From Stegostoma tigrinum (taxonomy: Eukaryota), in contig NC_081391.1 of NCBI RefSeq assembly GCF_030684315.1, positions 20,420,629 through 20,484,628 of the forward strand: DNA of 64,000 nucleotides. The letters are read 5' to 3'. This document shows, piece after piece, positions 757-61,993 of the stretch. Both the position numbers and the translations under genes were made by a program. The notes below the pieces were generated by a model. That model was not told the origin of the DNA, did not search any database, and saw only the letters and a program-made list of their open reading frames with translations. Each line of letters begins with the position of its first letter. The first letter of the stretch is position 1.

Positions 757-1155
757 AATCCAGAGCAGGATGAGTGGGGCAATGCAGAGAGCTCTGCAGA
801 TGGAGAAGGATGTGAGCCAGAGTCTGCTGGATCTGCACAAACTCGACTCTGGCCACACGGACCCTCATGTGAGTACTTCACTTTTTTGTCTGAAGGTGAT
901 AAGGCATTGGTTCTTCAGGTTAAATGTACCTATTCACCTAGCACTGAGCATTTGAAGTACAAAGCTGCTTTCTGCTCAGTGAGCTACTCGTTGCTTTGCT
1001 TTCTCCAGCTGTGTGACTTCCTGGAGAGGCACTACCTGGATGAGCAAGTGAAGATGATCAAGAAGCTGGGAGATCACATCACCAACCTGAAGAGACTGGG
1101 AGCCCCTGCCAATGGCATGGGAGAGTACCTGTTTGACAGGCTCTCACTCAGCTGA
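757..1155 (+). pseudogene. Ferritin copy 1, exons 3-4 only (5' part outside the window), frameshifted
   Basis: Exon 3 at 757-868 is 112 nt versus 126 in paralogs, a 14-nt deletion between two GGCAATG repeats. Exon 4 at 1009-1155 reads [52 protein letters not shown] intron; AATAAA at 1212-1217. Confidence 0.85.
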
Positions 1156-3614: not shown

Positions 3615-3833
3615 AGCTCTGATTGGCTCTGGGGATCTCATTCCACCCCATGCCCTTCATTGGCTCCTGCATTCATGGAGATGCCTGATTGGCTATCAGT
3701 GATTGTCAATCATCATTGGTGATGTCATTCCCTGGTTGAGTGCAGGATGTTCCAGGAGGTTAAATCCAAGAGCTTGTGGCTGAGAGGCTTAGTTCTGGAG
3801 TTGCCCAGGTGAAAGTGAGCAGGAATAGTGACA
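3615..3833 (+). promoter_or_regulatory. Ferritin copy 2 proximal promoter/5'UTR
   Basis: Several inverted CCAAT boxes (ATTGG). ATTGG 3688-3692 + 10 nt + TTGTCAATCA 3703-3712. CRE-like TGATGTCA at about 3720. The TATA position reads GGTTAAAT (3758-3765) instead of GTATAAAT. Confidence 0.6.
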
Positions 3834-6819
3834 ATGGCCTCCCAAGTGTGTCAGAACTACCACAAGGACTGTGAGGATGCTGTTAACAAGCAGATCAACC
3901 TGGAGCTCTATTCCTCCTATGTTTACCTCTCCATGGTGAGCCTAGTAATTTTGAAGGTCAATTCTTTTTATCTTGCTTCTCATTCCACTCTGCCCCACTG
4001 AGGTTGTCTGGGGTGGGCAATATGTCAGTCATGTTGATGCCCCATGTGTTTCAGTTAATGTGTTAAAACAATATCTTAAGTCAACAAATTAGCTTTGGAA
4101 TGTTTGGAATTTTTCTATCAAACTCATCCACTTGCGTGATTAAGGATTCTTGGTTGCCTTGTTAACTGATTTGCTTTATATTCTGTAACTTTGTTTTATT
4201 CTGAAGTGGTTTATGTTGGAACTAAATCCAAGATTCCTTACATTTTCCTGTGGATGACTTTCATAATGCATAAACCTGAACAAACTTCCTTAGAATTGAT
4301 TTAAAGATAATTGGGTGACTCATTTGTGAAACCAACTGAGCCCTTTTCTACCTGTATCTAAATGAGCATATTCCTGTTGTGTTGGCCTTCATGCTAGGTT
4401 GGTCCATGATAGTCAGATAATGGAAACTGTAGATGCTGGAGAATTGAAGATAATGAAGTGTGAAGCTAGATGAACACAGCAGGCCAAGCAGCATCTCAGG
4501 TGCACCACAGCTGACATCTTGGGCCAACACCCCCTGATGAAAGGTCTAGGCCTGAAACATCAGCTTTTGTGCTCCTGAGATGCTGTGTGGCTTGCTGTGT
4601 TCATCCAGCTTTGCACTTCATCATCCATGATGGTGCTTAGATTATTGCTTATGTTACTGTATTGAAGTCAAGGGATTTTTGTCACCACTGACTTTAGGTG
4701 ACCAAGGGCTTTTGGTGACAGGGTCTCTGACATCACTTGGGTTGAGGATAAAATTCAGGTTTCTAGCGTTGGGGTTGTGTCCCTTCTCATGAGATCTGGG
4801 AAGTAATGGCTACTGAGGTGTTTAGTGCAAGTTGCAACATTAGCTCCTATGTTAATTCCCTCCCTTCTGAGGGGTTGTGCCTCCTTTCCCCTACACTCAA
4901 ATGGCAGTCACAGTTGGAGAAGACAATGCAGGATCCAAATCCAAGCTTCTCACCAAAGGTCATCAAAAACATGACCTTGACCTTCATAAATTATGATCTC
5001 TAGTTCTGAACTCTACTGCCTCAACCTGTTCTTCCCTTGTCTAGGCCATTTGTACACAACCTTATTGAAGCTGAAAATAAGCCATACAGGCTCTGTGGCA
5101 CTTCTCAATGCATGAGATTTGGAGCTTGCCTGATTCTGTTGTCTTCTCTTCTCCCCACAGTTCTCTTACTTTGACCGGGATGACGTTTCCCTGCATCACT
5201 TTGCTGAGTTCTTCAAGGAGCAGTCACATGAGGAACGGGAACACGCTGAGAAACTGATGGCATTCCAGAATAAACGTGGAGGCCAAGTCCTCCTGCAGAA
5301 CATAAAGGTTGGTGAAGCCTCCTACATTACAGCTACCTGAACTAGACATAGATTTGATGCTTGAATTCAGCTGGTGTAATGCTATATGGTGCACTAGTTC
5401 CTAGTTGCAGTCTCATCTCATTATATTGCACTTCATTATTCACATGGGTGAAGCATCTCCTTTTTCGCTTCCCTCCAGAAGCCAGAGCAGGATGAGTGGG
5501 GCAATGGTCTGGAGGCAATGCAGAGAGCTCTGCAGATGGAGAAGGATGTGAACCAGAGTCTGCTGGATCTGCACAAACTCGCCTCTGGCCACACGGACCC
5601 TCATGTGAGTTCTTTATTCCTGTTTCACCCAAGTGATGGAAGTTTTGTTAAAATGACTGAGTGTACTTCTATCTCCCCTACGTGGCTGTTCAGCCTTTAC
5701 ATTAATATCTTTTACCTGAGAACGCTGCTTCACAAACCCTTCACTTTAAGTAGGCCACTCAGCCCATCAAGTTTCTTTAGCCATTCTGATCATGGTTGAT
5801 CTGAATCCTCCTCATTCAAGGGGATAAGGCTGGAAAGTGAAGGATTTCTGAATTTAACTGTCTCAGCCTTTATGCTTGAATTACCTGACCCCCAACAACC
5901 CTCTGCAGCCAAGAATTCCATGGGTTCCCTCGAGCCTTCAGCTCTCACTCCGTGGAATCCTCTCTTTTAGAGAGGTCTCCTTTCCATTCTGTGCTGAGTG
6001 CAGGCTTCACTGTTTCCCTTAAAACAAACCATCTGTCCCCAGGGTCACATGACAGCTAAGTTGCCATCCTGAATGTTCCCCTTATCTGGACGGCGGCTAA
6101 ATGATAGATGACGGTCTTCTCTTCCATGTCCTACCCTAACACTATGGGGTCTCATCTTGTCTGAGTGTACAGTCTCTCCAGACATTGGACCCTGTGTTTA
6201 AGTGAGTTTCCTTGATGACAAGGAAAAATCCAGCTTGCTGAACTGTGAAGGGAATGTTTGCTTTGCTTTTAGCTTGGTTTTTTATGCTGATCCTGAACAA
6301 AAACAATTGGGAGCCCCATATGTAGAGATGTTCAGATAGAAATGGAGAATGTGTGCTCCTCCTGCATTTTTGAAAATCACTGGGAGTGGGGCTGTGGCTT
6401 TAGGACATGAAAGAAAAATTGGCTTCAATCAATTCTTCCTCACCCCCACCCGCTCCCTAAGAGCAAGTGCTTATTCCATGGATCTGAAGCTTAATTTGTG
6501 CAATTTAAAAATAGTGACTTGTCACACAGTAAATTTCACTTCTCCTCAGCTAGAAGTGTTTGCATCATGACTTGCCTGAATCAATTGGAGGTGTTGGGGG
6601 AGGGGAAGGCACTTAAAATTCCAATTGTCAGTTCCCCTCCACACTAACCAGCTCTGCACCTGACTGTTCCAGCTGTGTGACTTCGTGGAGAGGCACTACT
6701 TGGATGAGCAAGTGAAGATGATCAAGAAGCTGGGAGATCACATCACCAACCTGAAGAGACTGGGAGCCCCTGACAATGGCATGGGAGAGTACCTGTTTGA
6801 CAGGCTCACACTCAGCTGA
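3834..6819 (+). CDS. fth1: Ferritin heavy/middle-subunit-like, copy 2 (intact, 173 aa)
   Basis: Exons 3834-3935, 5161-5307, 5479-5604, 6673-6819; all GT-AG, phase 0. [66 protein letters not shown].../...[10 protein letters not shown]. Ferroxidase ligands equivalent to human H E27, Y34, E61, E62, H65, E107, Q141 are present. The symbol is family-level, not an orthology call. Confidence 0.93.
4414..4623. mobile_element. Fold-back pair of Penelope-like element 3' termini in intron 1 of copy 2
   Basis: Two inverted copies of the PLE terminal sequence. Central CTGATGA-AAGGTCTAGGCCT-GAAACATC at 4534-4561. Flanking direct repeat TCCATGATAGT (4403-4413) / TCCATGATGGT (4624-4634). Confidence 0.8.
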
Positions 6820-9858: not shown

Positions 9859-11353
9859 AGGACTGTTTAAGAGAATCGTTTACAAAGCTCGCAGTGCCCT
9901 GAGCTTTATTAGTAGGGGCAAGTGTACAAGAGCAAGGTGATTATGCTGAACCTGCTTAAGTTTGACCCCAACAGGAATACTGTGTCTCATTCTGCACATC
10001 ACACTGAAGGAAAGAGTGTAGGTATAGGAGAGAGTGCAGAAGAGGCTTACTGGAATGGCAACAGGAATGAGGAATTTCAGGTGTGAGGATATATTGGAGA
10101 AGCTGGGACTTTTCTCTCTGGAAAGCAAACGGCTCAAATTCGGATCCAGAAAGAACAAACAGGGGCACGATGTTCCCATTTGTTAAAGGGTCAGGTGCAA
10201 GAAGGCACAGGTTTAAAATTGGCAAAAGAAGCTGAAGTGATCTGCGAAAATAAAAACCTTGCAACACAGCGAGTGGATAGGGTGTGAAATGTATAGTCCG
10301 AGAGTGTGTTGGAGGCAGGTTCAATTCACGCATTCAAAAGGGAATAGGACTGATATCTGAAAGGGAATAACATGGAGATTACAGGGACAGTGCAGGAGAA
10401 TGGCAAGAGGTGAAACGCTCAGCGAGTTGGTGGTGGATACGATGGGCCGAATGGTCACCATCAGCACCGTAATAACCGTGTGGCAGTGGGCAGATATGAA
10501 AGCCGAATTAAAAAGGCCAGAACGTGCTCACTTTCCCCCAAGCCGGCTGGACAACAAAACAGCATGGGTTGTAATACAACAGCATAGACGTGGCATCAGA
10601 GCACATTTGGAGCGCTGTGCTGAGCTCTGACAGGGTTATTTGAGGGACCTTAGCACAGATTCACCAGCATTTTCTCAGCCCCAAGCTGGTTACGTTATGA
10701 ATACAGTTTACATCAACTAGCCTTGTCCTTGCAAGAGTGTGGAAGACTCGAGAACGAATATTATCCAGGTACTTTGGATTATTAATGGATCTAATCGTGC
10801 CGTTAGACAATGTACTGTTTCCTGTGGCGAAGTAATCCTGGAAAAGGGGGAATAATCTTCAGATCAAAGCTATGGTAATCAGTGATGATGCTTAATCTCA
10901 AACATTACAGTATCACTCCCAAAATTCTGCAAGTCAATTGGACATTTCAAAACTGATTTGTTGAGCTGTGCTAGTTTGCAATATGATGCGATGCAGAACC
11001 CAGGCAAAGGTATTAAATGAAGACTCAGACTTGCACTGATCCAGTTGAATTAGGGGACAGGTTTGAGAGGCTAAGTGCTCTCGTTATCACAGAATAATAA
11101 TCTCAGCCTGACTGTTGCCCAAATCTCTGATTGACTCTGGGTCTCAGCACATTGCCCCACTCTCCTTCTCCACTGTTCATTGGTGACTGGGTTCTTACAG
11201 ATTCCTGATTGGCTGTCAGAGATTGTCAATCATTGTTAGTGATGTCATTCCCTGGTTGGTGCAGGATGTTCTCTGGAGTTTCAATACAAGAGCTTGTGGG
11301 AGGGAGACTCAGTTCTAGAGTTGTCCAAGTGATTGTGAGCAGGAATAGTGAGG

Positions 11354-13127
11354 ATGGCCTCCCAGGTGTATCAGAGCTACCACAAGGACTGTGAGGGTGT
11401 TGTTCACAAGCAGATCAATCTGGTGCTTTCTTTTTCCTATGTTTATCTCTCCATGGTGATTGTGGTGTTCTCTGGATTTATTTCAGATTTAAAGCTGTGG
11501 TCTCCTTGTATTGTGGGTGTAGGATCTCTCTACATCATTCAATTCATGTTAGAATCTTCTGTGGCCTTCCCCTGACCTTGAGAAGTGAATAATCTTTCAA
11601 TGGTTTGATCTTGGTGTATGACCTGAGAAGTCTGTTTGTTTTTCTTTTGTTCAATGTAACTGGATTTATTCTTTTGAATAGTTAGAGTAAGTCAATCTGC
11701 CCAGAGACCTGATCTCTTACTTCTAGAACATATGTGACCCTAGACCTCCAATCCCAGAGGGGGGAACACTCTCAATCTCTGGGTCTATTTGCTGTCAATA
11801 CGCTACTAGTAAGCTTTGTAAGTTCACTTCAGAGTGGGGAACGCTGTTCTGTGTTGGAAGGTTTCTTCACTGAAGCTGAGCCATTTTCACTTAACCATAT
11901 GGACTTTCAGAATGATGAGGTGTCATTTAATGCTTAATATTTGGAGTCAAGTATGAAATATTCATGCCCCCCCCCAACTTGTAGGAAGATGCTTGTTTCC
12001 CTTCCTTCCTGCTTTACAAGGAAAGAACCTCCACATATTCTGGTGTTGTTTTTGTTGTGATTGACAAGGGAGGCTTTCCCTTCCAGAACCTGCAGGCCTG
12101 ACTGAAGAAGCATTTCAGGTAGAGAAGGATCTTTAACAACAAACCCCAATGGGTTTCCCTGTTGACAATCCTTTCACTTTTACTGGGATGATGTTGCCCT
12201 GTGTCACTTTGCTGAGTTCTCATGGGACTACTCCTTGAAGGAATGGGAACATGTTGAGAAACTGATGGCATTCCAGAATGAATGTGGGTGTTGGGTCCTC
12301 CTGTAGGACATGAAGGTTGGGTTTAATGGAATGTGATCTTGTCCTGATGAAGACTTCTTCAAGCCTAGAGTATTATTTCAATTTAATGCTTTGGATACAA
12401 TCTCTTAGCTGTTGTACACTCTCTTAATGGGATGGAGGTCTTGTTGCTTTTTTCACTGGTTTCTTGCATTTTAAGTGATGTGTCTTGTCTCTTACCATCC
12501 ACCCCGACGCTGCCGCTTCAGAAGCCTGACCATGGCAATGGTCTGGAGGCAATGCAGGGAGCTCTGCAGATGGAGAACGATGTGAACCGGAGTCTGCTGG
12601 ATCTGCACAAACTCTCCTCTGATCACACAGACCCTCATGTGAGTTCCTCACTTTCTCTCTCCAAGAAGCTTCCTTGCCTTTCACTGCTAAATTCAGCAAG
12701 TAGGGCTGATGGCCTTTAGAGCAACAAACTACCAGGATGATTTTCAAATTACAGGAAAGATGAATGTTTCCAACCTGAAAGTGATCTGTTTGTCTACTCC
12801 TGGGGGGAGGGGGAATACAATTGTCTCATAACTGCCTCCTGCAGACTGTTAAATCTACAACAGTCCAAACTCATCACCAGAGTGCCCCTTTCCCTCAACA
12901 TGGCGGTGATTTGTTAAATCTGAATGGAGGGTCACTCCCAAATGTCTTCAATGGACTCCACTAACTTGTCTTGTCTTCCAGCTGTGTGACTTCCTGGAGA
13001 CGCACTACTTGGATGAACAAATGAAATGATCAAAAAGTTGGGAGATCACATCACCAACCTGAAGAGACTGGGAGCCCCTCAGAAGGGCAAAGGAGAGTAT
13101 CTGTTTGACAGGCTCAGCCTGAGCTGA
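11354..13127 (+). pseudogene. Ferritin pseudogene, copy 3
   Basis: Exons 11354-11455 (E27-equivalent changed to V), 12169-12315 (acceptor AG to AA, 22-nt inversion 12219-12240, TAG 12304-12306), 12522-12638 (9-nt deletion), 12982-13127 (1-nt deletion). TATA mutated to GTTTCAAT. Confidence 0.93.
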
Positions 13128-15075: not shown

Positions 15076-15290
15076 TTGCCTCTACCAGCACCCTTTGTCT
15101 TCCACCTTCGAGCCATTTCTGTATCCAAATGGATAATTCTCCCTGGATTCCATGTGATCTCACTTTGCTAAACAGCTTACTATGAGGAACATTGTCAAAC
15201 GCTTCATTGCAGTCCATGTAGATCACTCCCACCACTCTGCCCTCATCATTGCTCTTCATCACTTCTTCAAAATACGCAATGAAGCTCATG
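15076..15290 (-). mobile_element. CR1 LINE RT fragment
   Basis: ORF 15002-15289 reads ...VVGVIYMDCNEAFDNVPHSKLFSKVRSHGIQGELSIWIQKWLEGGRQRV, matching the CR1 RT motif YxDFxKAFDxVPH. Duplicate at about 37155-37366. Confidence 0.8.
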
Positions 15291-16252: not shown

Positions 16253-16278
16253 GACACACACACACACACACACACACA
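16253..16278. repeat. (CA)n microsatellite
   Basis: Direct reading; interrupted paralog at about 38331-38356. Confidence 0.9.
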
Positions 16279-17339: not shown

Positions 17340-17621
17340 ACCGACTGCTGATCCAATCACAGAATAACCATCCAGACTTGACAACAATCTGCACCTCTGA
17401 TCAGCTCTGCCTCATACACTCACACCCTCTCTCTAATTGGTGGGAAGGCAGAGGTGGGGCTAAATTCATGGGAGATTCCTTATCGGCTTTCAGGGATTGT
17501 CAGTCATCATTGGTGATCCCTCGTTGAACATAGGATGTCCCAGGAGTATAAATACTAGTGCTTATAGCACAAAGACTTAGTATGAGACTTATCTCGGTGA
17601 TAGTGAGCAGGAATAGTGAAG
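17340..17621 (+). promoter_or_regulatory. Ferritin copy 4 promoter/5'UTR
   Basis: TATAAAT at 17547-17553, 75 nt before the ATG; TTGTCAGTCA decamer and ATTGG upstream. The distal part is homologous to the copy 8 promoter. Confidence 0.7.
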
Positions 17622-19769
<2,148 letters not shown>

Positions 19770-20940
19770 GTGGCAGTTTGGAATTGCTTCACTATTGTAC
19801 ATGAAAGCAGAATTATTTGTATCGGTTTCTCTATTGCTGCATGTGGAAATAAAATATTCACTCAACTAGGTTTTCCTGTGTAACTAATTCCTAGACTGAC
19901 CATCAAACATTTACCTCCCTTCGTTCAGTGCTACATTTTTATTCCCCCCCATGATGTGGCTACAGTGAAGTACAAGGCAGGGGTCTGAATGTAGGCCATC
20001 AGCTTCCTTGACTCCTGTCTGCCATTTAATACAATCCTGCAGGTCTTCCTTCCACACCACTGGTGCATCTGCCTTTTTCTCAGCTCCTGCAAACCTGACT
20101 GCACATCTGTCTCTTCCTTTAATTGGTTCAGCTTTCTTTTCATTCAGGGGCCACTGCATTCCAGCCTAACGAATGCCGGTGCATGACCCTGTGCGGGAGG
20201 TTAAACCTCTCCTCTGCCATAAACTGGCTCGGGTATCCCTTAACTTGAGCCACAAGGCTCTAACTGGCCAATCTGCTTGCATATCTTGCTTAACAATGGG
20301 AGTTAAGATCATCCTTCTGAAACTTTGGCGAGTAAGAGTTGAAATGAGGGAGATGAAAGAGTGTTTTTTTTTTCTGAAAAAAACCCTGCTTACTCTGAGG
20401 AGAGTTTAGATTACGTTACTCTCAGGGGGGCAGTGCACAATACTCTTGCCGCTCTATCAGCCTCCACACTCTTATCCTTTAGTAATAAAAGCAAAGGGAA
20501 ATGCTTAATATCTCAATCGGAGCTTTGATCAATTCATGCCTGAAGGAAGCCAGGTTTCTCTTGTATTGGAGCACTTTGACGTTTTATTTCACCCCATTTA
20601 GAATACAAGCTGCTTCCTTTTACTGGCCTAACTCCATGTCCTCACTCTATCGGTCAAGGACATGAGTCGAAAGGGTGGGCTTTTTATGACAACAGCTTTG
20701 TGGTCTTTGTTAGACTAGTTCCAAAGTAGCTGAAATGAATGCCAAGTTGCAGTATAATTCATAGCTGACTTTCTGCATTAACCATTTAATGATAATGTCA
20801 TTAGCTTGTGACCACAGTCTTTGTTCGGATCTGTGGGGCATTTCCAAGCGTTGCAAGTGGAACTGAAGAATTGTGGATGTTGACAACCTGGAGACAAAAC
20901 AGATTTATGGGAGAAACTCAGCTAGTCCGCTAGCATCCAT

Positions 20941-21700: not shown

Positions 21701-22576
21701 CTAGGTTTCAAAGTTTCTGTCTCTTCCCCACAGGGTCCTCTGACGTCCATATATTTCCATGTGACATTGACAGAAGAATAAAGATCTATATCACGCTACC
21801 TGATTGCTGTTAGTCGGCACGATAATACCAAAAACAGGCAGAATATTATCAACAACACCAATAAAATAACTGGACAAGACTAGGTGACAGTTCAATGTGA
21901 GGAAAAGCAAACTTTGCACCAAGATAAATGAGAGTTTTTTCAATGCAACAGAGCTAGAAACTGAAGAAAAGCACAGAGTTAGGAAACCATGTGTAGAAAT
22001 GACATAAAAACTCACAGCCTGCAGCAAAATTGAACTGAAAAGGCACACAGCAGTTTAGTCATTATCTCGACGGAGGGAGAGGACTAGAATGTACAGGCTA
22101 TGTCAATATTATATGCAGTACAGAATATACTATATGTGGAGTATATTACTCTGATTTTGGCCCTGGAGTGAGTTTTGTTTCAGTCATTTCATAGAATATG
22201 GCTGTTGCTGATGATGCCAACCACTGATATCCATTCGTAATTGCTGTTAGGCCGAGTGGCCTGACCCCATTCCAGAAGCAAGATAAAAGTCAACACATTG
22301 CTCTTGGTCCCCAGTCACCTTCAGGCTTCCTTCAGCTCCTGGGGCCAATCACAGATTTGCTGCCATTTCAAAACTGTGATTGGCTCTGAGTATCTCACTC
22401 CACCCCATTCCCCTCATTGGTGCCTGGATGCATGCCAATTCCTCATTGGCTGTCATCATTGGTGGTGTCATTCCCTGGTTGATTGCAGGATGACCCAGGA
22501 GTATAAAGAAAAGAGTTCATAGGAAAGGAGCTCAGTTCTGGAGGTGTTGAGGTGATAGTGAGCAGGAGTAGTGAAG

Positions 22577-24812
22577 ATGGCTTCCCAAGTGTGTCAGAAC
22601 TATCACAAGGACTGTGAGGATGCTGTTAACAAACAGATCAACCTGGAGCTCTATTCCTCTTATGTTTACCTCTCCATGGTGAGGCTTGATTGTCTCATTT
22701 TCCAATGAAGACAATGCATTTAATGTAATTCTGATAATACCTGGAAATTCTCTTGTTTAATAAGCAGAGTGTTGAAATGTAAATTACTCCTTCTGTGAGT
22801 GTGGTTCTCTTTGGCTGGGTATCATACTCATTAGAATCTATGTAATGTCGATTATAGGTCACTTGTCCAAATGAGTCCATCTGACGAGCATCCCACCTAC
22901 CCTACCCCTGTGACCCTGCACTTCCCATGGCTAACCCACCTAACCTGGCCCCTATGGGCAATTTAGCATAGCTGGTCAACATCATCTGCCCATATATGGG
23001 CAGTGAAAGGAAACCCACATCTTTGGAGAGAATGTGTGAACTTCACATGCACAGTTTTAATCAGACCCTGGTCCCTGGCACTGTGTGGCAGTAGTGCTAA
23101 CTGCTGAGCCTTACTGCACAATTGGTTAGCATCCTCCTCTGTCTTTTATGTTCTGAAGTGTATGGTGTCAGGAAAAGTCTAATGTTCATGTCCATGTTTA
23201 ATACTGGATGTTTCCATGAAGCAATTACAGTATTAGATTATATTTTAGTCTCTAATTATTGGGTTCCTTTTGGGGGAGGAGCTAGTGTTGCTGACTTGAG
23301 TAGGGTGGTGGGGGAAGGAGGAGAGGAATGTTTGTCTGGAGATGATGTGTAACATCAATGCTGTGATCAATTGTCACCTGTTTATTTTTTAAGTGACTTG
23401 TGATACAGTCAGTTGTTAAATAGCTTACTATTTTACTCTTTTAGCTGGTGATGAAATTTTAGTCTTGCCTTCTGTTCCCTTCTGCTTACAGTTCTCTTAC
23501 TTTGACCGGGATGATGTTGCCCTGCGTCACTTTGCTGAGTTCTTCAAGGAGCAGTCCCATGAGGAACGGGAACATGCTGAGAAACTGATGGCATTCCAGA
23601 ATAAACGTGGTGGCTGTGTTCTCCTGCAGGACATCAAGGTTGGGGTCTATCTCATAATAAATGCAAATTGTATAGTTTCCTGCTTGTACAATGGCCTTGC
23701 TGTTCTAGACTCCCCTCAACTTATTGTGTTCAGATCAGTGAAGTGACTTGATAGAAAGTCTCTGCTTGATGTGAGTTGGTTTTGCTAATTCTCTGCTTTT
23801 CTGAAAGATCAACAAATCAGAATGAAAGGGTTTTAGCACTGAACTTGCCCAATTGACAGTTTAGACTGATACATTGCTGTTGACTAGCCTGAATACAGGT
23901 AATTTTATCCCACTGTTTCAGTCAGTTTTTGTCCTAATCTGTCTGCAGTTCCTAATGATGGATCAAATGTCTGATAATGGTCTCCATGATCTTCTGCGAA
24001 TTGTGAATTATTTCTAATCCTTAGTTTGGATTTGGCACGGATTACCATATGTCTTCATTTTCTTGCCTTCGTATGAGTCTTGGACCTTCTCACATCACTA
24101 ATGACTGTCTTCTCCCTCCAGAAGCCAGAGCAGGATGAGTGGGGCAATGGTCTGGAGGCAATGCAGAGAGCTCTGCAGATGGAGAAGGATGTGAACCAGA
24201 GTCTGCTGGATCTGCACAAACTGGCCTCTGGCAACACTGACCCTCATGTGAGTTCCTGATGGGATGAATGTCTCAAGGAAGCTCAAGGTGACATGGGAAT
24301 CTGCTATTCCTGTTGTACAAGCATAGGCTTGCTATTGTCCCAGTGTTTGAGACCAGTAGCCATCCTGAACATAGATGTCAGTCACTGATATGTGCTTAGC
24401 TGACTTGGTGAGAGGCGTAAGTGTTTAGAACTTTCACCCAATTCAGTGAAATGGCAGTTTGACCCCTGTGGGTAAACTTAGGTTTCTGTCAGCATTTCTG
24501 CATTTGCAAAGTTGCAAATAAAGCTATTTCAGTGTGTTCATTGTTTCTGGAGAGCAAGCTGCTGTCAAATACCAGCACTTGTACACACTTATATCACTGC
24601 AAAAGTGCAATGGTGTGATTGTTGATGTGTCTGCTCTAACATTACATTCTGGCTCCTTGTTCCAGCTGTGTGACTTCCTGGAGAGGCACTACTTGGATGA
24701 GCAAGTGAAGATGATCAAGAAGCTGGGAGATCACATCACCAACCTGAAGAGACTGGGAGCTCCTGACAATGACATGGGAGAGTACCTGTTTGACAGGCTC
24801 TCACTGAGCTGA
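22577..24812 (+). CDS. fth1: Ferritin heavy/middle-subunit-like, copy 5 (intact, 173 aa)
   Basis: Exons 22577-22678, 23492-23638, 24122-24247, 24666-24812; GT-AG; TATAAA at 22502, 75 nt upstream. Family-level symbol. Confidence 0.93.
22880..23112 (-). mobile_element. Degenerate V-SINE (HE1-like) in intron 1 of copy 5
   Basis: Similar to 2405-2696 (CCCATGGCTAACC, GGAGAATGTGTGAACT, GGCAGTAGTGCTAACTGCTGAGCC). Confidence 0.6.
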
Positions 24813-28285: not shown

Positions 28286-29780
28286 AGGACTGTTCAAGAG
28301 AATGGTTCATAAAGCTCGCAGTGCCCTGAGCTTTATTAGTAGGGGCAAGTGTACAAGAGCAAGGTGATTATGCTGAACCTGCTTAAGTTTGACCCCAACA
28401 GGAATACTGTGTCTCATTCTGCACATCACACTGAAGGAAAGAGTGTAGGTATAGGAGAGAGTGCAGAAGAGGCTTACTGGAATGGCAACAGGAATGAGGA
28501 ATTTCAGGTGTGAGGATATATTGGAGAAGCTGGGACTTTTCTCTCTGGAAAGCAAACGGCTCAAATACGGATCCAGAAAGAACAAACAGGGGCACGATGT
28601 TCCCATTTGTGAAAGGGTCAGGTGCAAGAAGGCACAGGTTTAAAATTGGCAAAAGAAGCTGAAGTGATCTGCGAAAATAAAAACCTTCCAACACAGCGAG
28701 TGGATAGGGTGTGAAATGTATAGTCCGAGAGTGTGTTGGAGGCAGGTTCAATTCACGCATTCAAAAGGGAATAGGACTGATATCTGAAAGGGAATAACAT
28801 GGAGATTACAGGGACAGTGCAGGAGAATGGCAAGAGGTGAAACGCTCAGCGAGTTGGTGGTGGATACGATGGGCCGAATGGTCACCATCAGCACCGTAAT
28901 AACCGTGTGGCAGTGGGCAGATATGAAAGCCGAATTAAAAAGGCCAGAACGTGCTCAGTTTCCCCCCAAGCCGGCTGGGCAACAAAACAGCATGTGTTGT
29001 AATACAACAGCATAGAAGTGGCATCAGAGCACATTTGGAGCGCTGTGCTGAGCTCTGACAGGGTTATTTGAGGGACCTTAGCACAGATTCACCAGCATTT
29101 TCTCAGCCCCAAGCTGGTTACGTTATGAATACAGTTTACATCAACTAGCCTTGTCCTTGCAAAGTGTGGAAGACTCAAGAACGAATATTATCCAGGTACT
29201 TTGGATTATTAATGGATCTAATCGTGCCGTTAGACAATGTACTGTTTCCTGTGGCGAAGTAATCCTGGAAAAGGGGGAATAATCTTCAGATCAAAGCTAT
29301 GGTAATCAGTGATGATGCTTAATCTCAAACATTACAGTATCACTCCCAAAATTCTGCAAGCCCCTTGGACATTTCAAAACTGATTTGTTGAGCTGTGTTA
29401 GTTCACAATATGATGTGATGCAGAACCCAGGCAAAGGTATTAAATGAAGACTCAGACTCGCACCGATCCAGTTGAATTAGGGGACAGGTTTGAGAGGCTA
29501 AGTGCTCTCGTTATCACAGAATAATAATCTCAACCTGACTGTTACCCAAATCTCTGATTGACTCTGGGTCTCAGCACATTGCCCCACTCTCCTTCTCCTC
29601 TGTTCATTGGTGACTGGGTTCTTGCAGATTCCTGATTGGCTGTCAGAGATTGTCAATCATTGTTAGTGATGTCATTCCCTGGTTGGTGCAGGATGTTCTC
29701 TGGAGTATAAATACAAGAGCTTGTGGGAGGGAGACTCAGTTCTAGAGTTGGCCAAGTGATTGTGAGCAGGAACAGTGAGG

Positions 29781-31571
29781 ATGGCCTCCCAGGTGCATCA
29801 GAGCTACCACAAGGACTGTGAGGGTGTTGTTAACAAGCAGATCAACCTGGTGCTTTCTTTTTCCTATGTTTATCTCTCCATGGTGATTGTGATGTTCTCT
29901 GGATTTATTTCAGATTTAAAGCTGTGGTCTCCTTGTATTGTGGGTGTAGGATCTCTCTACATCATTCAATTCATGTTAGAATCTTCTGTGGCCTTCCCCT
30001 GATCTTGAGAAGTGAATAATCTTTCAATGGTTTGATCTTAATGTATGACCTGAGAAGTCTGTTTGTTTTTCTTTTTGTTCAATGTAATTGGATTTATTCT
30101 ATTGAATAGTTAGAGTAAGTCAATCTGCCCAGAGACCTGATCTCTTACTTCTAGAACATATGTGACCCTAGACCTCCAATCCCAGAGGGAGGAACACTCT
30201 CAATCTCTGGGTCTATTTGCTGTCAATACTTTACTAGTAAGCTTTGTAAGTTCACTTCAGAGTGGGGAACGCTGTTCTGTGTTGGAAGGTTTCCTCACTG
30301 AAGCTGAGCCATTTTCACTTAACCATATGGACTTTCAGAATGATGAGGTTTCATTTAATGCTTAATATTTGGAGTCAAGTATGAAATATTCATGCCCCCC
30401 CCCCCCCCCCCCCCCCCAACTTGTAGGAAGATGCTTGTTTCCCTTCCCTCCTGCTTTACAAGGAAAGAACCTCCACATATTCTGGTGTTGTTTTTGTTGT
30501 GATTTACAAGGGAGGCTTTCCTTTCCAGAACCTGCAGGCCTGACTGAAGAAGCATTTCAAGTAGAGAAGGATCTTTAACAGCAAACCCCAATGGGTTTCC
30601 CTGTTTACAATCCTTTCACTTTTACTGGGATGATGTTGCCCTGTGTCACTTTGCTGAGTTCTCATGGGACTACTCCTTGAAGGAATGGGAACATGTTGAG
30701 AAACTGATGGCATTCCAGAATGAATGTGGGTGCTGGGTCCTCCTGTAGGACATCAAGGTTGGGTTTAATGGAATGGGATCTCTTCCTCATGAAGACTTCT
30801 TTAAGCCTAGAATATTATTTCATTTTAATGCTTTGGATATAATCTCTCGGCTGTTGTACACTCTCTTAATGGGATGGAGGTCTTGTTGCTTTTTTCACTG
30901 GTTTCTTGCTTTTTAAGTGATGTCTTGTCTCTTACCATCCACCCCGATGCTGCCGCTTCAGAAGCCTGACCATGGCAATGGTCTGGAGGCAATGCAGGGA
31001 GCTCTGCAGATGGAGAAGGATGTGAACCAGAGTCTGCTGGATCTGCACAAACTCTCCTCTGGCCACACAGACCCTCATGTGAGTTCCTCCCTTTCTCTCC
31101 AAGAAGCTGCCTGGCCTTTCACTGCTAAATTCAGCAAGTAGGGCTGGTGGCCTTTCGAGCAACAAACTACCAGGATGACTTTCAAATTACAGGAAAGATG
31201 AATGTTTCCAACCTGAAAGTGATCTGTTTGTCTACTCCTGGGGGGAGGGGGAATACAATTGTCTCATAACTGCCTCCTGCAGACTGTTAAATCTACAACA
31301 GTCCAAATGAATCACCAGAGTGCCCCTCTCCCTCAACATGGCGGTGATTTGTTAAATCTGAATTGAGGGTCACTTCCAAATGTCTTCAATGGACTCCACT
31401 AACTTGTCTTGTCTTGTCTGCCAGCTGTGTGACTTCCTGGAGACGCACTACTTGGATGAGCAAGTGAAGATGATCAAAAAGCTGGGAGATCACATCACCA
31501 ACCTGAAGAGACTGGGAGCCCCTCAGAAGGGCAAAGGAGAGTATCTGTTTGACAGGTTCAGCCTGAGCTGA
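29781..31571 (+). pseudogene. Ferritin pseudogene, copy 6
   Basis: Exons 29781-29882, 30611-30757 (acceptor lost, inversion 30661-30682, TAG 30746-30748), 30962-31078 (9-nt deletion), 31425-31571 (open). TATA intact at 29706. Confidence 0.93.
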
Positions 31572-31697
31572 ATGAGGATTCAACAACTCCATTTGTTGTA
31601 CACTGGTGTTCTCGTGAAACTGCAGAGTGCACAAAAAGTGAATGAAAACATTGCTCATGTATCTGACTACTTTGAGTAACTGCTTCATTTATTTGGC

Positions 31698-39344: not shown

Positions 39345-42300
39345 GTCAGTGATGATGCTTAATCTCAAACATTACATTATCACTTCCAACATTCTGCAAG
39401 TCAATTGGACATTTCAAAACTGATTTGTTGAGCTGTGTTAGTTCGCAATATGATGTGATGTGGAACCCAGGCAAAGATATTAAAAGAAGAGAGAGACTTT
39501 CACTGATCCAGTTGAATGGGGGAACAGACTTGAGAGGCTAAGTGCTCTCATTATCACAGAATAATAATCTCAACCTGACTGTTGCCCAAATCTCTGATTG
39601 ACTCTGGGTCTCAGCACATTGCCCCACACCCCCTCTCCTTGTTCATTGGTGCCTGGGTTCTTGCAGATTCCTGATTGACAATCTCTGACAACCAATCATT
39701 GTTAGTGATGACATTTCCTGGTTGGGTGAAGGATGTTTTCCAGGAGTATAAATACAAGAGCTTGTGGTAGGGAGACTTAGTTCTAGAGTTGTTCAAGTGA
39801 TTGTGAGCAGCAATAGTGAAGATGCCCTCCCAAGTGTGGCAGAACCATCACAAGGCCTGTGAGGATGTTGTTAACAAGCAGATCACCCTGGTGCTTTCTT
39901 TCTCCCATGTTTACCTCTCCATGGTGACAGTGGTGTTCTCTGGATTTATTTCAGATTTCAAGCTGTGGCCTCAATGTATTGTGGGTGCAGGATCTCTCTG
40001 CATCATTCAATTCATATTTTAGAATCTTCTGTGGCCTTTCCCTGACCTTGACAAGTTAATAATCTTTTAATGGTTTGATCTTGATGTATGAACTGGGAAT
40101 TCTGTGCGTGTTTTTCTGTACAATGTAATTAGATTTATTCTATTGAATAGTGTTAATCAGTCTAGAGATATTATGTCTGACCTCTAGAGCGTATGTGACC
40201 CTGGACCTCCATCCCAGAGGGAGGAACACTATCACAATCCTGAGTTCTATTTGCTGTCAATACTTCACTAATAAACTCTGCAAGTTCACTCCAGAGCTGA
40301 GAATCCTGTTCTGTGTTGGAAGGTTTCCTTGCTGAAGCTGAGCCATTTTCCCTACCCATATGGCCTTGTGGAATGATGAGGTTTTATTTTAATGTGTAAT
40401 ATTTGGTGTCAAGTATGAAATATTCATGACCCAACTTGTAGGAAGATGATCCTTTCCCTTCCCTCCTGCTTCACAAGGCATGAAACTCAACCTCAACATA
40501 TTCTGGTGTGGTTTTTGTTGTGATTTACAAGGGAGGCTTTCCCTTCCAGAACCTGCAGGCCTGACTGAAGAAGCATTTCAAGTAGAGAAGGATCTTTAAC
40601 AACAAACCCCAATGGATTTCCCTGTTTACAATCCTTTCACTTTTGACTGGGAAGATGTTGCCCTGTGTCACTTTGAGTTCTCATGTCACTGTTCTTTGAA
40701 GGAATGGGAACAGCTAAGAAACTGACGGCATTCCGGAAAGTGGGTGCATGCTCCTCTTGTAGGACATCAAGATTGGGTTTAATGAAATGGCATTTTGACC
40801 TGAAGAAGACTTTTTTAAGCCCTGAATATTATAGCATTTTAATGCTTTGGATATAATCTCTTAGCAGTTGTGCTATCTCCTCATGAGATGGAGGTCTCGT
40901 TGCTTTTTTTCACTGGTTTCTTGCACTTTAAGTGATGTGTCTCGTCTCTTGCCATCCACTCCCACGCTGCCGTTTCAGAAGCCTGACCATGGCAACGGTC
41001 TGGAGGCAATGCAGGGAGCTCAGCAGATGGAGAAGGATGTGAACCAGAGTGTGCTGGATCTGCACAATCTCTCCTCTGACCACACAGACCCTCATGTGAG
41101 TTCCTCACTTTCTCTCCAAGAAGCTTCCTGGCCTTTCACTGCTAAATTCAGCAAGTAGGGCTGATGGCCTTGAGAGCAACAAACTACCAGGATGATTTTC
41201 AAATTACAGGAAAGATGAATGTTTCCAACCTGAAAGTGATCTGTTTGTGTACTCTTGGGGGGGGAAGGGGGAATACAATTGTCTCATAACTGCCTCCTGC
41301 AGACTGTTAAATCTACAACAGTCTAAATGAATCACCAGAGTGCCCCTCTCCTTCAACATGGCGGTGATTTGTTAAATCTGAATTGAGGGTTACTTCCAAA
41401 TGTCTTCAATGGACTCAACTAACTTGTTTTGTCTTCCAGCTGTGAATTCCTGGAGAGGCACTACTTGGATGAGCAAGTGAAGATGATCAAGAAGCTGGGG
41501 GATGACATCACCAACCTGAAGAGACTGGGAGCCCCTCAGAAGGGCAAAGGAGAGTATCTGTTTGACAGGCTCAGCCTGAGCTTGAATGGGGATTCAACAA
41601 CTCCATTTGTTGTACACTGGTGTTCTAGTGAATGACTTTTTTTTGCGCACTCTGCACAAAATGAAAACATTGCCCACGTATCTGACTACACTTAGTTGTC
41701 TGTTTATTAAATCCCTGAGGCTTTTTGCTCTCTGCATTGAATCAATGCTTGCCGTGGCAATTTTTGTTCAGTTTCTGAATCCAGAGTCATAAGAATATTT
41801 TAAATGAGTAATTGTTGTGGAAATCAAACTGTTAAGCTTTTGGCTTTTAAGCAGTGCTCATGGTGACAGTTCTGTATGAGCAGGCCTCAGTCAATAGCTT
41901 CGCCAAAATTGCTCCATTCTAACTGTTAGCCACTTAACTGGTGCCCTGTCCCTAGCAATGCTCCAACTTTCCTAAAAGCTGGGATCAAACACAATACAAA
42001 CGTCTAGAGTCAGGGGGGCAGGTGGCACTCTGCATGTGTTGATACACCAGTTAAATGTTTGAGTCTGGTGACTCCTCAACTGAAGTCTATCCACAGGTGC
42101 TGCCGGACCTCACTTTTGCTGGTAACTTTCACTTAACTTGATGAGCAGAATTCAAGCATTAAAAAAATACTTTGTTCGTAGAAAAGGAACAACAATGGCA
42201 ACTGGCATGTGCATTGCATTTTTTTGGGCGTGTTTCTTTGAAGAAGTAACACACCACTGTTCTGGTTTCCCAAGCTAAGGAACTGGATTTTCTTACAAGT

Positions 42301-43140: not shown

Positions 43141-43493
43141 CCCCCACCACCACCCCCATACAGGTCCTGAAAAATTGTTTGTCAGTACAACACTGTTTAC
43201 TAGCCAGAAAAACTGAACACTTGTGGGATTTCCACTAAATCGATTGCCTCCTGAATTCCTACAGACGCAAGAGGAGCAAACTACTGGGGCAGGCATTGAA
43301 TTAAAGGTTAATCAGAAGTAACAGAAAAGGATTTAATGATCAGGTGTCAAACAGCAATACCAAGAGCCAGAAGCAGCTGTGAAATTATGCAAAGTACTCA
43401 GTTCCATGGTGAACACTATTTTAATTTGCTCAGAGCACAACCAAGTTACTAGCATTATGTCACCATGTACAACATACACATTATTGACCCCAT

Positions 43494-45921
<2,428 letters not shown>

Positions 45922-46200
45922 CTTCACTATTCCTGCTCACAAGCACCAAGAAAACTCTAGAACTAAGTCTCTCTCTCCCACAGGCTCTTGTATTTATAGT
46001 CCTGGGACCATCCTGCAGTCACACAGAGAGAGGCAGAACTGATGATGACTGACAGTTGCTGCTGGCCAATCAGGAACCACCCCTGCATACAGGCACCAAT
46101 GAGAGAGAGGGGGAGGGTGTGTTAAGCAGAGCTGATCAGAGGTGGAGATGAGAGCCAGGTCTGGATGGTTATTCTGTGATTGGAACAGCAGGAGGCCATT
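45922..46200 (-). promoter_or_regulatory. Ferritin copy 8 promoter/5'UTR
   Basis: TATAAATA (complement of 45991-45998); TGACTGACAG 46046-46055 + 10 nt + CCAAT 46066-46070; second CCAAT at about 46096. Confidence 0.7.
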
Positions 46201-50273: not shown

Positions 50274-52672
50274 TCAGCTGAGGGTGAGCCTGTCAAACAG
50301 GTACTCTCCCGTGCCATTGTCAGGGGCTCCCAGTCTCTTCAGGTTGGTGATGTGATCTCCCAGCTTCTTGATCATCCTCACTTGCTCATCCAAGTAGTGC
50401 CTCTCCAGGAAGTCACACAGCTGGAGAAAGCAAAGTCAAAATTAGTCTACCAGATCAAAATGCCATTTCAAAAAGTGATCCTTCGTTTCAGATGTCACTA
50501 GAGGGAGAAGTACCCAGGTGATGCAGTTAGTTTTAGTGACTGCATGAGGTTGTTGAGAGAGATCTTATTTCTGTTAGTGTGCAGAGAAAGATCATTTGCT
50601 TCCAAGGTTTTGAAATAAATTTATCCTTCCTGCAATTCTTGGTAATGTATTGCTGTAAAAGAGGGGTGTCTGCCTTGCTTTCAAACTAGCAAGAAAACTT
50701 CTGAAGAGCTTAGAAACTCACATGAGGGTCCATGTGGCCAGAGGCGAGTTTGTGCAGATCCAGCAGACTCTGGTTCACATCCTTCTCCATCTGCAGAGCT
50801 CTCTGCATTGCCTCCAGACCATTGCCCCACTCATCCTGCTCTGGCTTCTGGAGGACAGGGAGGATAGAGGCAGACACTTAAGTCAGTTTATCCATTAAAA
50901 AAGTGAATTCATGTGGCATATAATGTTAGCAGACCAAAAGAATTAATTGCTTCAAATCCATATCTAGCACTATTACTGCGAGTCTTGCAAGACAGACACT
51001 AAGCCCCAACCTTGATGTCCTGCAGGAGGACCTGGCCTCCACGTTTATTCTGGAATGCCATCAGTTTGTCAGCATGTTCCTGCTCCTCACGGGACTGCTC
51101 CTTGAAGAATTCAGCACAGTGATGCAGGGCAACATCAACCCGGTCAAAGAAAGAGAACTGTGGGAGACAGAAAACATCACCATTGCTGCTGACAAGTCTC
51201 TTATCTAGTTGAAGGAGAAGTGCCACCCTTTTAACTCATGGCAAAAGCCTCAGAGTCATTGCAGCACACAGCCTATGCTGGCTAAATCCACCAGCCCCCC
51301 GCCCCTCACCAAAACCAAACTACTCCTACTTCACAGTTTGGCCCTATGTCCTTCTAAGCTTTCTATTCATTTGCTTGTTCAAATGCCTTCAAGATGTTTA
51401 GCTGTACTTTGATCTGTTGCTTCCTTTGGCAGCTCAGTCCCATACAAACCTCCCTCAAAAGAAGGAGTGGTCCCTCAGGCCCCTTATACATCTTTACCCT
51501 GACGTTAATCATATGGGCCCCTAGTTTTGAACTCACTTGGGCCATTCACCCTGTCCATGCCACCTATGATGTTACAAACTTCTACAAGTTCACCCCCACA
51601 ATCTCCAGTGAAGGTCACAGCCCATCCTTGATTGCAAACCCTCCAGTCCTGGCAACATCCTGACCCTTGTCCAAAGGAGTCATTCCTATAATTGTGCAAC
51701 TGTAACTGGACACAATACTCCAGAAGGAGCTTCCTGTACAAGTTCAGTATGTCATCCCCAACTACTTTAGTCAAGGTCAAGCAATAAGGTTAGCAGGCTA
51801 AGCAACTGCATAGCCAGAGAGTAACAATTGCCAGTGTTAGAGTCCAAGATAACAGTGGTGCTGGAGGAACAGAGGCCAGGCAGCAGGAGAGCAGGAAAAC
51901 TGACAAGTCATGTCAAAACACCTCATCAGAAAAGCATGCCCCCAAATCTCATGTCATTTACCTTCAAGCAAGTCTACCATTCCAAGCCTATAGGTTAAAG
52001 TTCCCCCTTGGGAACTTGGAGTGAAACAAAGTGATTGTCTCCTTACAAGAGAGTTCAATAACATTTTTAAATTTTTGGTGTTAAAGAGAAACATCTCATT
52101 GGCCATTACCCATATGACAAAAGATTTAACTTCAGCAAAGACACTTTCCAACAGAAGGCAACTCCCAGCACTGAATTCAGTTTGGGACAAGTAAATTAGT
52201 ACAGACTTTGCAGCCATTCAGGCTCAGGGTAGCAGACATACTCCTAGCTCTGGGAGACAACAGCCCAGTTGTGCCTCACAAGCTGTCAGGGTAGGTCAGT
52301 ATCTCACCAGGTTGAGAAAGATTGTCGTCTATTCAAGGCAGTGAATCCTAATACATTAAGGAGGCAAGTAACTTTTAGACCACACATCAACAAAGCATTG
52401 AGAATTTGAGGGATCAAACTGTCCAAGAAAGTATTCACTGCTCCAAGTAAGGGAGGGGGCTACACCAGAACATTACACATGAGTCAAACAAGGCTAAGAA
52501 ATCATACCCCCTCAATACAACATGATTGCAGCTTTAAATCTGAAATAAACCCAGAGAACACTAGGCTCACCATGGAGAGGTAAACATAGGAGGAATAGAG
52601 CTCCAGGTTGATCTGCTTGTTAACAGCATCCTCACAGTCCTTGTGGTAGTTCTGAGACACTTGGGAGGCCAT
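50274..52672 (-). CDS. fth1: Ferritin heavy/middle-subunit-like, copy 9 (intact ORF)
   Basis: Exons 52672-52571 (a second in-frame ATG starts at 52675), 51157-51011 ([32 protein letters not shown]...), 50847-50722, 50420-50274; TATAAAT at 52747-52741. Family-level symbol. Confidence 0.9.
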
Positions 52673-53890
52673 CATCAATATTGCTGCTCACTATCACCTA
52701 GACAACTCTAAAACTAAGCTACACTATGACAAACTCTTGTATTTATATTCCTGGGACATCCCATTCTCAGCCAGCGATGACATCACTAACAATGATTGAC
52801 AATCTCTGGCAGCAAATCAGGAATCTCCAAGAGCCCAGGCACCAATCAGCAAAGGAGAGGGGGTGTGGTGCAATGTGCTGAGACCCAGAGTCAACCAGAG
52901 ATTTGGGCAACAGTCAGGTTCAGATTATTATTCTGTGATAATGAGACCATTCAGCCTCTCAAGCCTGTTCCCCCATTCAACTATATCAGTGCGAGTCTGT
53001 GTCTTCATTTAATATCTTTGCCTGGGTTCCACATCACATCATATTCTGAACTAACACAGCTCAACAAATCAGTTTTGAAATGTCCAATTGACTTGCAGAA
53101 TGTTGGGAGTGATAATATAATGTTTGAGAAAAAAAAGCATCATCAGTGATTACCATAGCTTTGATGTGGAGATTATTCCCCCTTTTCCAGGATTACTTCG
53201 CCACAGGAAACAGTACATTGTCTAACGGCACGATTAGATCCATTAATAATCCAAAGTACCTGGATAATATTCGTTCTTGAGTCTTCCACACTCTTGCAAG
53301 GACAAGGCTAGTTGATGTAAACTGTATTCATAACGTAACCAGCTTGGGGCTGAGAAAATGCTGGTGAATCTGTGCTAAGGTCCCTCAAATAACCCTGTCA
53401 GAGCTCAGCACAGCGCTCCAAATGTGCTCTGATGCCACGTCTATGCTGTTGTATTACAACCCATGCTGTTTTGTTGCCCAGCCGGCTTGGGGGGAAACTG
53501 AGCACGTTCTGGCCTTTTTAATTCGGCTTTCATATCTGCCCACTGCCACACGGTTATTACGGTGCTGATGGTGACCATTCAGCCCATCGTATCCACCACC
53601 AACTCGCTGAGCGTTTCACCTCTTGCCATTCTCCTGCACTGTCCCTGTAATCTCCATGTTATTCCCTTTCAGATATCAGTCCTATTCCCTTTTGAATGCG
53701 TGAATTGAACCTGCCTCCAACACACTCTCGGACTATACATTTCACACCCTATCCACTCGCTGTGTTGGAAGGTTTTTATTTTCGCAGATCACTTCAGCTT
53801 CTTTTGCCAATTTTAAACCTGTGCCTTCTTGCACCTGACCCTTTCACAAATGGGAACATCGTGCCCCTGTTTGTTCTGTCTGGATCCCTC
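52500..53890 (-). repeat. Inverted duplicate of the upstream/promoter block of copies 3 and 6
   Basis: Reverse complement of about 10135-11510 and 28565-29940. ORF 53696(+) has the same N-terminal peptide as 28760(-). Confidence 0.9.
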
Positions 53891-55985: not shown

Positions 55986-58833
<2,848 letters not shown>

Positions 58834-59807
58834 CTTCACTATTCCTGCTCACTATCACCTGGACAAGTCTTCAACTGAGCCTCACCAGCACAAGCTTGTA
58901 TTTATATTCCTGGGAACATCCTGCACCAAGTCAGGGAGGAGGCATCACCAATGATTGACAATGCCAGCTAACCAATCAAATCATCCGTGCACCAATGATC
59001 TTAGAAAAAGGAATTTGGTCGGGGCAATGACAGAACAAGATGTTTGGAGGAAATTCATTCTAATGAGGTCCCTGCGTCAGATTCATACAGCTTGTGCAAA
59101 TCCCTAAATTGCCATTGTTTGAGTAGATAAGAATGGCCTTTTTCTTTATGTTACAGCTTGAAGTTTGCCCAGGACAATATCTGGTTTCGAAAAGGTTTCA
59201 GTCCTGAAACAAATGATTGTGCTCCTGAGGAGCATTTTTTGCCATAGGCACAGCAGACAGGGTGATGGATGTTCATATCAGGACCTACTGTTCGTGTGAC
59301 ACGCCAAAGCAGGCAGGAGACAGATGCCACCAATAGACACAGTCAATCCACACAAACAGAACTGGTAACTGGGGAGTGATACTTGTTTTGGTGAAACAAA
59401 AGTGATTTAAAGATGCAACGAACATCCAGCGGTCACACTGCTTTGTCCAAACTGAGGTATCATGGTTACTCAAGGGCCACCCCATTGGTCATCAGAGAGA
59501 CCAAGACAGCAGCTAATAGGCAAGGCAGCTAAACTGTGTGCAAGTATTTCAAAAGGGAAAAATGGATCACCTTGCCACAACTATTCACCATGTTAAATGT
59601 TACTTGTCATTGTCTACTTAACCCACTTGATAGTGGAGATTTTGTGCAAACTCAGAAAAACACAATGTAGCTTTGTATAGTTTATTGCCAGTTGGTACAT
59701 TTCACAATAGAGATCACATCTTATCTATTTTTAGAAGCAGAAAACTCAGCTTGTCTAGATATCTCCCATTTATACAAAAAAAACCCCAGAAGTTTGCTCC
59801 CTGCAGT

Positions 59808-61732
<1,925 letters not shown>

Positions 61733-61993
61733 CTTCACTATTCCTGCTCACTACCACCTGGGCAATTGTAGAACTAAAGCTCTGCCCCAAGTTCTTGTAT
61801 TTATACTCCTGGGACATTGCACATGCCGACAGGGATGACATCACGAATGATGATTGACAATTCCGGACAGCCAGTCAGGAATCTCCAAGAATCCAGCCAC
61901 CAACAAACAAGGTAAAGGGGACTGTTGGGGAAAAGTGCTGAAAGACAGAGCCAATCAGAGATTTGGAATACGGACAGTTACAGATCATTATTC

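Follow-up and report, generated by a model that had tools for sequence, protein, structure and literature searches.

A tandem ferritin gene array without a recognisable iron-responsive element in Stegostoma tigrinum, with a candidate role in ovarian iron storage

The window analysed here is a 64-kb stretch of Stegostoma tigrinum DNA, across which 11 ferritin gene copies were located with the exons of copy 4 as probes. Seven copies lie on the + strand and four on the - strand, with a tail-to-tail meeting point near 42 kb, and exon 1 is visible in 10 of the 11. Intact open reading frames are found in six copies (2, 4, 5, 8, 9 and 10), encoding proteins of 173 aa with a mutual identity of 87-95%; the other five (1, 3, 6, 7 and 11) are broken by stops, frameshifts or lost splice sites. 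The copies are arranged as follows:

757..1155, + strand: copy 1, of which exons 3-4 only lie inside the stretch; broken, exon 3 with a 14-nt deletion
3759..6819, + strand: copy 2, open reading frame intact, TATA box degenerate, ATG at 3834
11279..13127, + strand: copy 3, broken (exon 2 stop, acceptor lost, exon 4 frameshift), ATG at 11354
17622..19769, + strand: copy 4, intact, 173 aa; exons 17622-17723, 18616-18762, 19249-19374 and 19623-19769
19848..19853, + strand: polyadenylation signal AATAAA of copy 4
22502..24812, + strand: copy 5, intact, ATG at 22577
29706..31571, + strand: copy 6, broken (exon 2 stop, acceptor lost), ATG at 29781
39747..41584, + strand: copy 7, broken (exon 2 frameshifts), ATG at 39822
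43494..45998, - strand: copy 8, intact, ATG at 45921
50274..52747, - strand: copy 9, intact, ATG at 52672
55986..58906, - strand: copy 10, intact and the most diverged copy, ATG at 58833
59817..61805, - strand: copy 11, broken (two exon 2 stops, first donor altered), ATG at 61732

Exon 2 of copy 4 matches the Pfam Ferritin family (PF00210), and exon 4 of the array is 100% identical to database proteins of Stegostoma tigrinum. Among the matches listed, which are cluster representatives only, there was no full-length protein identical to any array copy. Sharks and rays are the source of almost all of the best 120 of 159 database matches. NCBI names of the 'oocyte isoform-like' kind on the matches reflect similarity and were not counted as evidence of expression. 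Copies 2, 5 and 10 have no canonical poly(A) hexamer within 400 nt.

Of the 15 pairs of intact copies, 14 have dN/dS values of 0.15-0.76 and the remaining pair 1.17, the two highest values (0.76 and 1.17) belonging to pairs with copy 10. The intact copies have a synonymous divergence of only 0.055-0.15, and their introns sit at near-random identity (introns and farther flanks 53-58%, versus 52% for random pairs). This disparity would reflect either homogenisation limited to exons and promoters or strong constraint on silent sites. Three segmental duplications are visible, pairing 7628-13227 with 26044-31670 (93%), 13206-17262 with 35244-39340 (93%) and 10866-14726 with 39333-43158 (84%); they multiplied an already broken copy, and lesions are common to copies 3, 6 and 7. 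The interval 31965-34715 is a GC-rich, frameshifted repeat element with long open reading frames, related pieces of which lie at 8543-9537 and 26945-27938. Its sequence motifs recall a Penelope-type retroelement, and it matched no Pfam family at E<=0.001.

The promoters of the array are compact and well preserved. The earlier note had placed a TATA box 73-77 nt before the ATG in six copies (17547, 22502, 45998, 52747, 58906 and 61805), and all six positions proved exact; that in copy 11 is genuine too, and the gene behind it is one of the broken copies. Two further TATAAA boxes at -75 (29706 and 39747) bring the motif to 8 of 10 copies at -73 to -77, with a degenerate box at this position in copies 2 and 3, and TATAAA occurs 34 times over both strands of the 64 kb. 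In all 10 copies the A of an initiator-type motif (YYAGTW) falls at -43, 30-34 nt 3' of the TATA position; the motif's background chance is about 0.01 per 5-nt window, and the copies are not independent. A TATA-to-initiator spacing of 30-34 nt is that of a standard TATA-initiator promoter. The short leader proposed earlier, of about 45 nt, is thus upheld in kind, with the initiator position predicting 43 nt instead. In copy 4, which lies directly downstream of the sequence displayed above, the elements are:

17362..17546, + strand: proximal promoter with inverted CCAAT boxes and TGACA/TGTCA words
17547..17552, + strand: TATA box (-75)
17577..17582, + strand: initiator-type motif, predicted start A at 17579 (-43)
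17579..17621, + strand: predicted 43-nt 5'UTR, without an iron-responsive element and without a conserved fold

Over -260..-76 of the 10 copies, inverted CCAAT boxes (ATTGG) number 22 versus 2.3 expected and TGACA/TGTCA words 22 versus 5.5 expected, the copies being related and the counts therefore not independent. The latter word is a candidate TALE-type half-site. E-boxes are depleted in the same interval (2 versus 12.6 expected), and words for ARE, MRE and HRE show no enrichment there. Control by stress elements of these three types or by Figla-type E-boxes was accordingly dropped as a candidate, none of these words being enriched; an oocyte-type E-box or CPE pattern was looked for in the array copies and none was found. 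The promoters are CpG-poor and of TATA type (CpG observed/expected 0-0.27). Mean identity among the intact copies is 80% in the leader and 71% in the -160..-76 block.

The leader itself has no conserved fold (consensus energy -0.54 kcal/mol, no compensatory pairs). Nor is there an acceptor-like AG in the last 110 nt before the ATG: the best score is 2.8, versus 7.8-18.5 for the 18 real acceptors of the array, which also trained the scoring matrix. A hidden upstream exon was considered on account of an acceptor-like AG at -25 in some copies and rejected; the site scores <=0.6, and two of the intact copies (4 and 8) lack it. An out-of-frame ATG at -40 (17582-17584), 3 nt past the predicted start, is peculiar to copy 4 and probably goes unused, being so near the cap.

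Textbooks describe vertebrate cytosolic ferritin as controlled through a 5' iron-responsive element (IRE). The earlier note had found none in the ten copies with a visible 5' end, and this observation held in both Rfam and SIREs-style scans. At gathering score, Rfam gave 0 matches over the 64-kb stretch in a search run without a positive control; at E<=10, no IRE family was among the 7 matches over the stretch, nor among the 6 over 16600-17730. The SIREs-style scan, with rules taken from the available text of PMC2896125 (the loop definition is also given in that of 10.1101/524991), recovered 200 of 200 planted hairpins. It found 0 canonical IREs in -1500..+102 of 10/10 copies and 0 within 400 nt past the stop of 11/11, the two sides on which an element had been suggested to be sought. 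Over the whole stretch it gave two matches versus 1.3 expected from shuffles, both antisense, intronic and downstream of all copies on their own strand, so that no sense-strand canonical IRE lies upstream of any copy within the 64 kb. A C8-bulge hairpin with any hexaloop is absent from -75..+35; G8 matches with any hexaloop number four in this interval, unconserved and in three copies. The hallmark of an IRE-regulated ferritin (C8 bulge, 5-bp upper stem, CAGWGH loop) is therefore missing from the array; it is the sequence of the leader that excludes an IRE, which a length of 43 nt could accommodate.

Ferritin messages of sponge, oyster and frog, as well as those of FTH1 and FTL, carry IREs according to the available texts (PMC8395497; PMC2896125; PMC13026281), and since they do, the absence in the array is most simply explained as a loss. 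Judged from sequence, this absence is real, old and common to relatives in other sharks and a ray, and with high probability the array ferritins are independent of IRP.

The evidence from relatives came in part from predicted proteins that read in frame through the leader, for which 10 N-terminal extensions were back-translated and compared with the upstream DNA of the stretch. Two of the 10 match, both from the array clade (basking shark P0071, z 6.2; sawfish P0073, z 5.0), with scores reached by 0 of 100 shuffles each; the reading frame of the basking shark protein runs across the TATA box, 23 codons 5' of the ATG. The extension of sawshark P0069, also of the array clade, does not match the stretch's leader (z 1.4), and the seven extensions from other ferritin groups do not match its upstream DNA. 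An IRE core could be encoded by 0 of 3 array-clade extensions versus 9 of 12 extended FTH1-type proteins, whose peptides recur, in a permissive test that 0-12 of 20 shuffles also pass. All listed proteins of fth1a and of the single-copy gene lack an N-terminal extension.

Further evidence is provided by TR59554 from spiny dogfish liver, a spliced and polyadenylated array-family member represented by two isoforms in the available part of the published assembly (PMC5568229, S3 File). These isoforms were assembled de novo, and chimeras are possible in a multi-copy family. Compared by eye, the 114 nt of TR59554 that precede the ATG run collinear with the array promoter and leader and contain a degenerate TATA box at -77 and an initiator-type A at -45; no CAGWG loop and no extra exon were seen in them. 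Transcripts starting further upstream, or using an additional exon that carries an IRE, had been named earlier as grounds for abandoning the idea of IRE loss. The 5' end of TR59554 does lie further upstream, 37 nt before its degenerate TATA position and 69 nt before the predicted start, and this added sequence has neither IRE nor extra exon. TR59554 shows directly, at the transcript level, that an IRE-less message exists and that the family is expressed outside the ovary. By eye, only about 4 mismatches to copy 2 were counted over the 102 bases of dogfish exon 1. No other ferritins were among the matches listed for the S3 File of dogfish liver over its first 4.0 MB.

The position of the array within the ferritins was studied in a careful tree of 40 named proteins drawn from a 97-row quick tree, with the same groups in both; trees and counts exclude records without a source name and three with labels unlike a fish or natural gene. 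The array copies form one clade with sharks of several orders and a sawfish (support 96/98). The FTH1 clade (97/97), which includes skate fth1a, chimaera H and a teleost fth1b, excludes the array, and a grouping of the array with chondrichthyan FTH1 was rejected (AU p=0.029). The array clade also lies outside the bony-vertebrate M-type group (84/86), the tree giving it no resolved sister group, and apart from three other elasmobranch groups, namely one with K62, one single-copy group of 176 aa and one with a basic N-terminal extension.

All seven of the residues E27, Y34, E61, E62, H65, E107 and Q141 (human H mature numbering), which we take to be the ferroxidase centre, are present in 6/6 intact copies. 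The cavity acid E57 is kept in the intact copies and E64 in 5/6 of them, and the best PDB matches (query P0023) are middle-subunit ferritins. Positions 19 and 23 (Met numbering) distinguish the clade from FTH1: position 23 is K in 6/6 array copies and 20/21 other clade members versus R in 19/19 FTH1, and position 19 is D in 5/6 array copies and 19/21 other clade members versus A in 18/19 FTH1. In human FTH1, A19, N22 and R23 lie at the NCOA4 cleft, and the NCOA4-binding mutants in the available text of that study are A19Y and R23A/I/L, with A19D and R23K not among them (PMC11076521). The cleft changes are accordingly a lead only, because R to K is conservative and neither change is represented among those mutants.

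The earlier note had presented the array as a candidate undescribed system, a description that does not stand for the array as such, because the shark expansion has been published by others (10.1101/2024.09.09.611499; PMC13214024) and ferritins without an IRE are known from elsewhere. In the Greenland shark, ferritin copies have been reported under the names FTL (155) and FTH1 (179), in clusters syntenic with the white shark, and a single sentence of the preprint describes expression of the largest cluster as ovary-specific (Sahm et al., 10.1101/2024.09.09.611499); the word 'iron' is absent from its main text in the version available. Yang et al. (2026, PMC13214024) reported 59 'FTH1b' copies in the Greenland shark and more copies in sharks generally, described transcription of some copies in fin and blood, and proposed a link to ferroptosis; 'IRE' and 'iron-responsive' have 0 occurrences in the main text available, and an earlier preprint of theirs leaves ferritin unmentioned. 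The array has the same tandem multi-copy four-exon organisation as these clusters common to sharks. The Greenland shark clusters likely belong to the array clade and are very probably the same loci, and the 'FTH1b' label looks misleading, because the array falls outside the FTH1 clade that holds teleost fth1b. No published account of IRE loss in shark ferritins was found in a search whose coverage mostly excludes subscription journals, and this loss is apparently unpublished.

Several known ferritins resemble the array in part. The amphibian and fish M-type subunits ('middle' or 'higher') have the same short N-terminus, ferroxidase residues, E57 and E64 (the last in 5/6 array copies), but occupy a separate branch of the tree, and bullfrog ferritin has an IRE (PMC13026281, available text) where the array has none. 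Mammalian FTMT is, like the array, a vertebrate, ferroxidase-active ferritin without an IRE, and is reported not to be IRP-regulated (PMC7760355; PMC13010531), as would be predicted for the array. However, FTMT is single, intronless and TATA-less and has a transit peptide, whereas the array is multi-copy and TATA-driven, with three introns and no presequence. FTHL17 and mouse Fthl17 are germline-associated paralogues, with six genes reported in mouse (PMC7760355), but FTHL17 carries E62K and has no ferroxidase activity, whereas E62 is kept in 6/6 intact array copies. Snail yolk ferritin is described as an IRE-less reproductive iron store (PMC10799875), a role that the array may share by analogy; it is secreted, with a signal peptide and a 42-aa insertion, array proteins have neither, and the two are of independent origin. 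IRE-less ferritins have also been noted in schistosomes (by a title cited in PMC1488847) and among atypical invertebrate ferritins (PMC8395497), in the available texts.

The IRE-less ferritin is thus known as a kind, but not in a cytosolic, intron-bearing, amplified vertebrate form. The known vertebrate exception to IRE control is a mitochondrial retrogene; a catalytically intact, intron-bearing and amplified IRE-less cytosolic family would be a second route, by dosage and transcription, for vertebrate iron storage. If such a cluster is expressed in the ovary, as reported, the published shark expansion is better read as provisioning of eggs than as flexible control of iron in the soma.

The reading favoured here, which we hold with moderate confidence, is that of an elasmobranch IRE-less array whose output is set by transcription and copy number and whose main role is ovarian iron stocking. 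The array would be part of a tandem, elasmobranch-wide family of cytosolic, ferroxidase-competent subunits that lost the 5' IRE before the shark-ray split, with a compact CCAAT-TATA-initiator promoter for every copy and a leader that is short and unstructured. Because IRP1/2 presumably find no site in this leader, output would be the product of transcription and copy number. Most likely, its purpose is to supply the ovary with ferritin cages in bulk and in a stage-driven way, so that iron can be stored and kept harmless for very large yolky eggs. An ovarian IRE would defeat this purpose: free iron would fall as each cage formed, and translation of the message would thereby be switched off. Everyday iron-responsive storage would presumably fall to fth1a and to a single-copy gene that lies on the same chromosome as the array, with low somatic transcription of the array alongside ovarian use, and turnover may be slow through poor NCOA4 binding.

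Support for this ovarian model comes from the conservation of promoter and leader while introns sit at random identity, and snail yolk ferritin provides a functional precedent (PMC10799875, available text). The oocyte role suggested in the earlier note is supported as regards the ovary by the report on the Greenland shark cluster (10.1101/2024.09.09.611499, available text), and the liver origin of the dogfish cDNA speaks against it. Also counting against the model are copies transcribed in Greenland shark fin and blood (PMC13214024, available text), the 5/11 broken copies, the absence of an oocyte-type E-box or CPE pattern, and the presence of lymphomyeloid epigonal tissue in ovary samples from sharks (PMC5568229, available part). 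A stronger version, considered possible but doubtful, is a maternal iron-stockpile ferritin uncoupled from both controls, having no IRE and a remodelled NCOA4 cleft (A19D, R23K). If this were true, the cages would resist ferritinophagy and tens to >100 copies would load giant eggs, forming a cytosolic vertebrate counterpart of invertebrate yolk ferritin; the 'ferroptosis and longevity' signal of the Greenland shark would then be largely a reproductive trait.

The alternative that survives best, though we regard it as unlikely, is a constitutive buffer against oxidants or ferroptosis throughout the body, without an IRE, which follows the interpretation given for the Greenland shark expansion. 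The intact ferroxidase centre would suit such a buffer, as would transcripts in dogfish liver and in Greenland shark fin and blood (PMC13214024, available text), but the largest Greenland shark cluster is reported as ovary-specific (10.1101/2024.09.09.611499, available text), the expansion is found in short-lived sharks also, and the promoters are of the CpG-poor TATA type without enrichment of ARE, MRE or HRE words. Less probable still is immune iron withholding by leukocytes of the epigonal organ around the ovary, where IRE loss would permit ferritin at low iron during infection. Epigonal tissue within ovary samples (PMC5568229, available part) and blood expression in the Greenland shark (PMC13214024, available text) are consistent with it; however, array proteins have no signal peptide, no immune-type evidence was found, and ovary specificity would be expected to extend to testis-associated epigonal tissue.

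Returning to the ovarian model, its remaining competitors are a neutral history and a concealed form of IRP control. It is improbable to a high degree that the array is a largely neutral birth-and-death assembly of barely used duplicates, with the IRE lost by truncation: broken copies (5/11), recent segmental duplications and dN/dS values up to 0.76 and 1.17 in copy 10 pairs are what such a history would leave, but promoter and leader are kept across sharks and a ray, the family is found in every elasmobranch order among the matches listed, and the catalytic residues are invariant. Persistence of IRP control through a non-canonical leader element or an IRE on a distant upstream exon has the slimmest chance, for despite the 80% conservation of the leader, at least one real transcript starting upstream of the TATA position, and a superset scan that covered the 16 SELEX loop variants over -75..+35 only, there is no any-loop C8 hairpin in the leader and no upstream sense-strand canonical IRE within the stretch, the leader lacks a conserved fold and an acceptor, and the dogfish cDNA is collinear with genomic upstream sequence.

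Other ferritin groups were noted in the same comparisons. One elasmobranch group (100/100) contains one ferritin per species (P0123, P0127, P0128, P0130-P0136, P0138, P0143 and P0144), and several members are on the same contigs as array members. Its conserved N-terminal extension of 26-62 aa is Arg/Leu/Gly-rich with almost no acidic residues (4-10 R+K and 0-1 D+E in 12/12 counted); by composition it looks like a mitochondrial presequence, which would make this a shark and ray mitochondrial ferritin independent of mammalian FTMT. A second multi-copy family has K62 and no ferroxidase centre (P0088, P0094, P0095, P0099, P0104, P0121 and P0122); it lies beside tetrapod L chains in the tree, its proteins are encoded on a Stegostoma contig of 26.87 Mb, and it may co-assemble with array ferritins. 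Among the matches listed, turtles have several 176-aa 'heavy chain A-like' ferritins per species (P0102, P0109, P0146, P0170, P0174, P0188, P0190 and others), which suggests a parallel expansion of the M-type locus.
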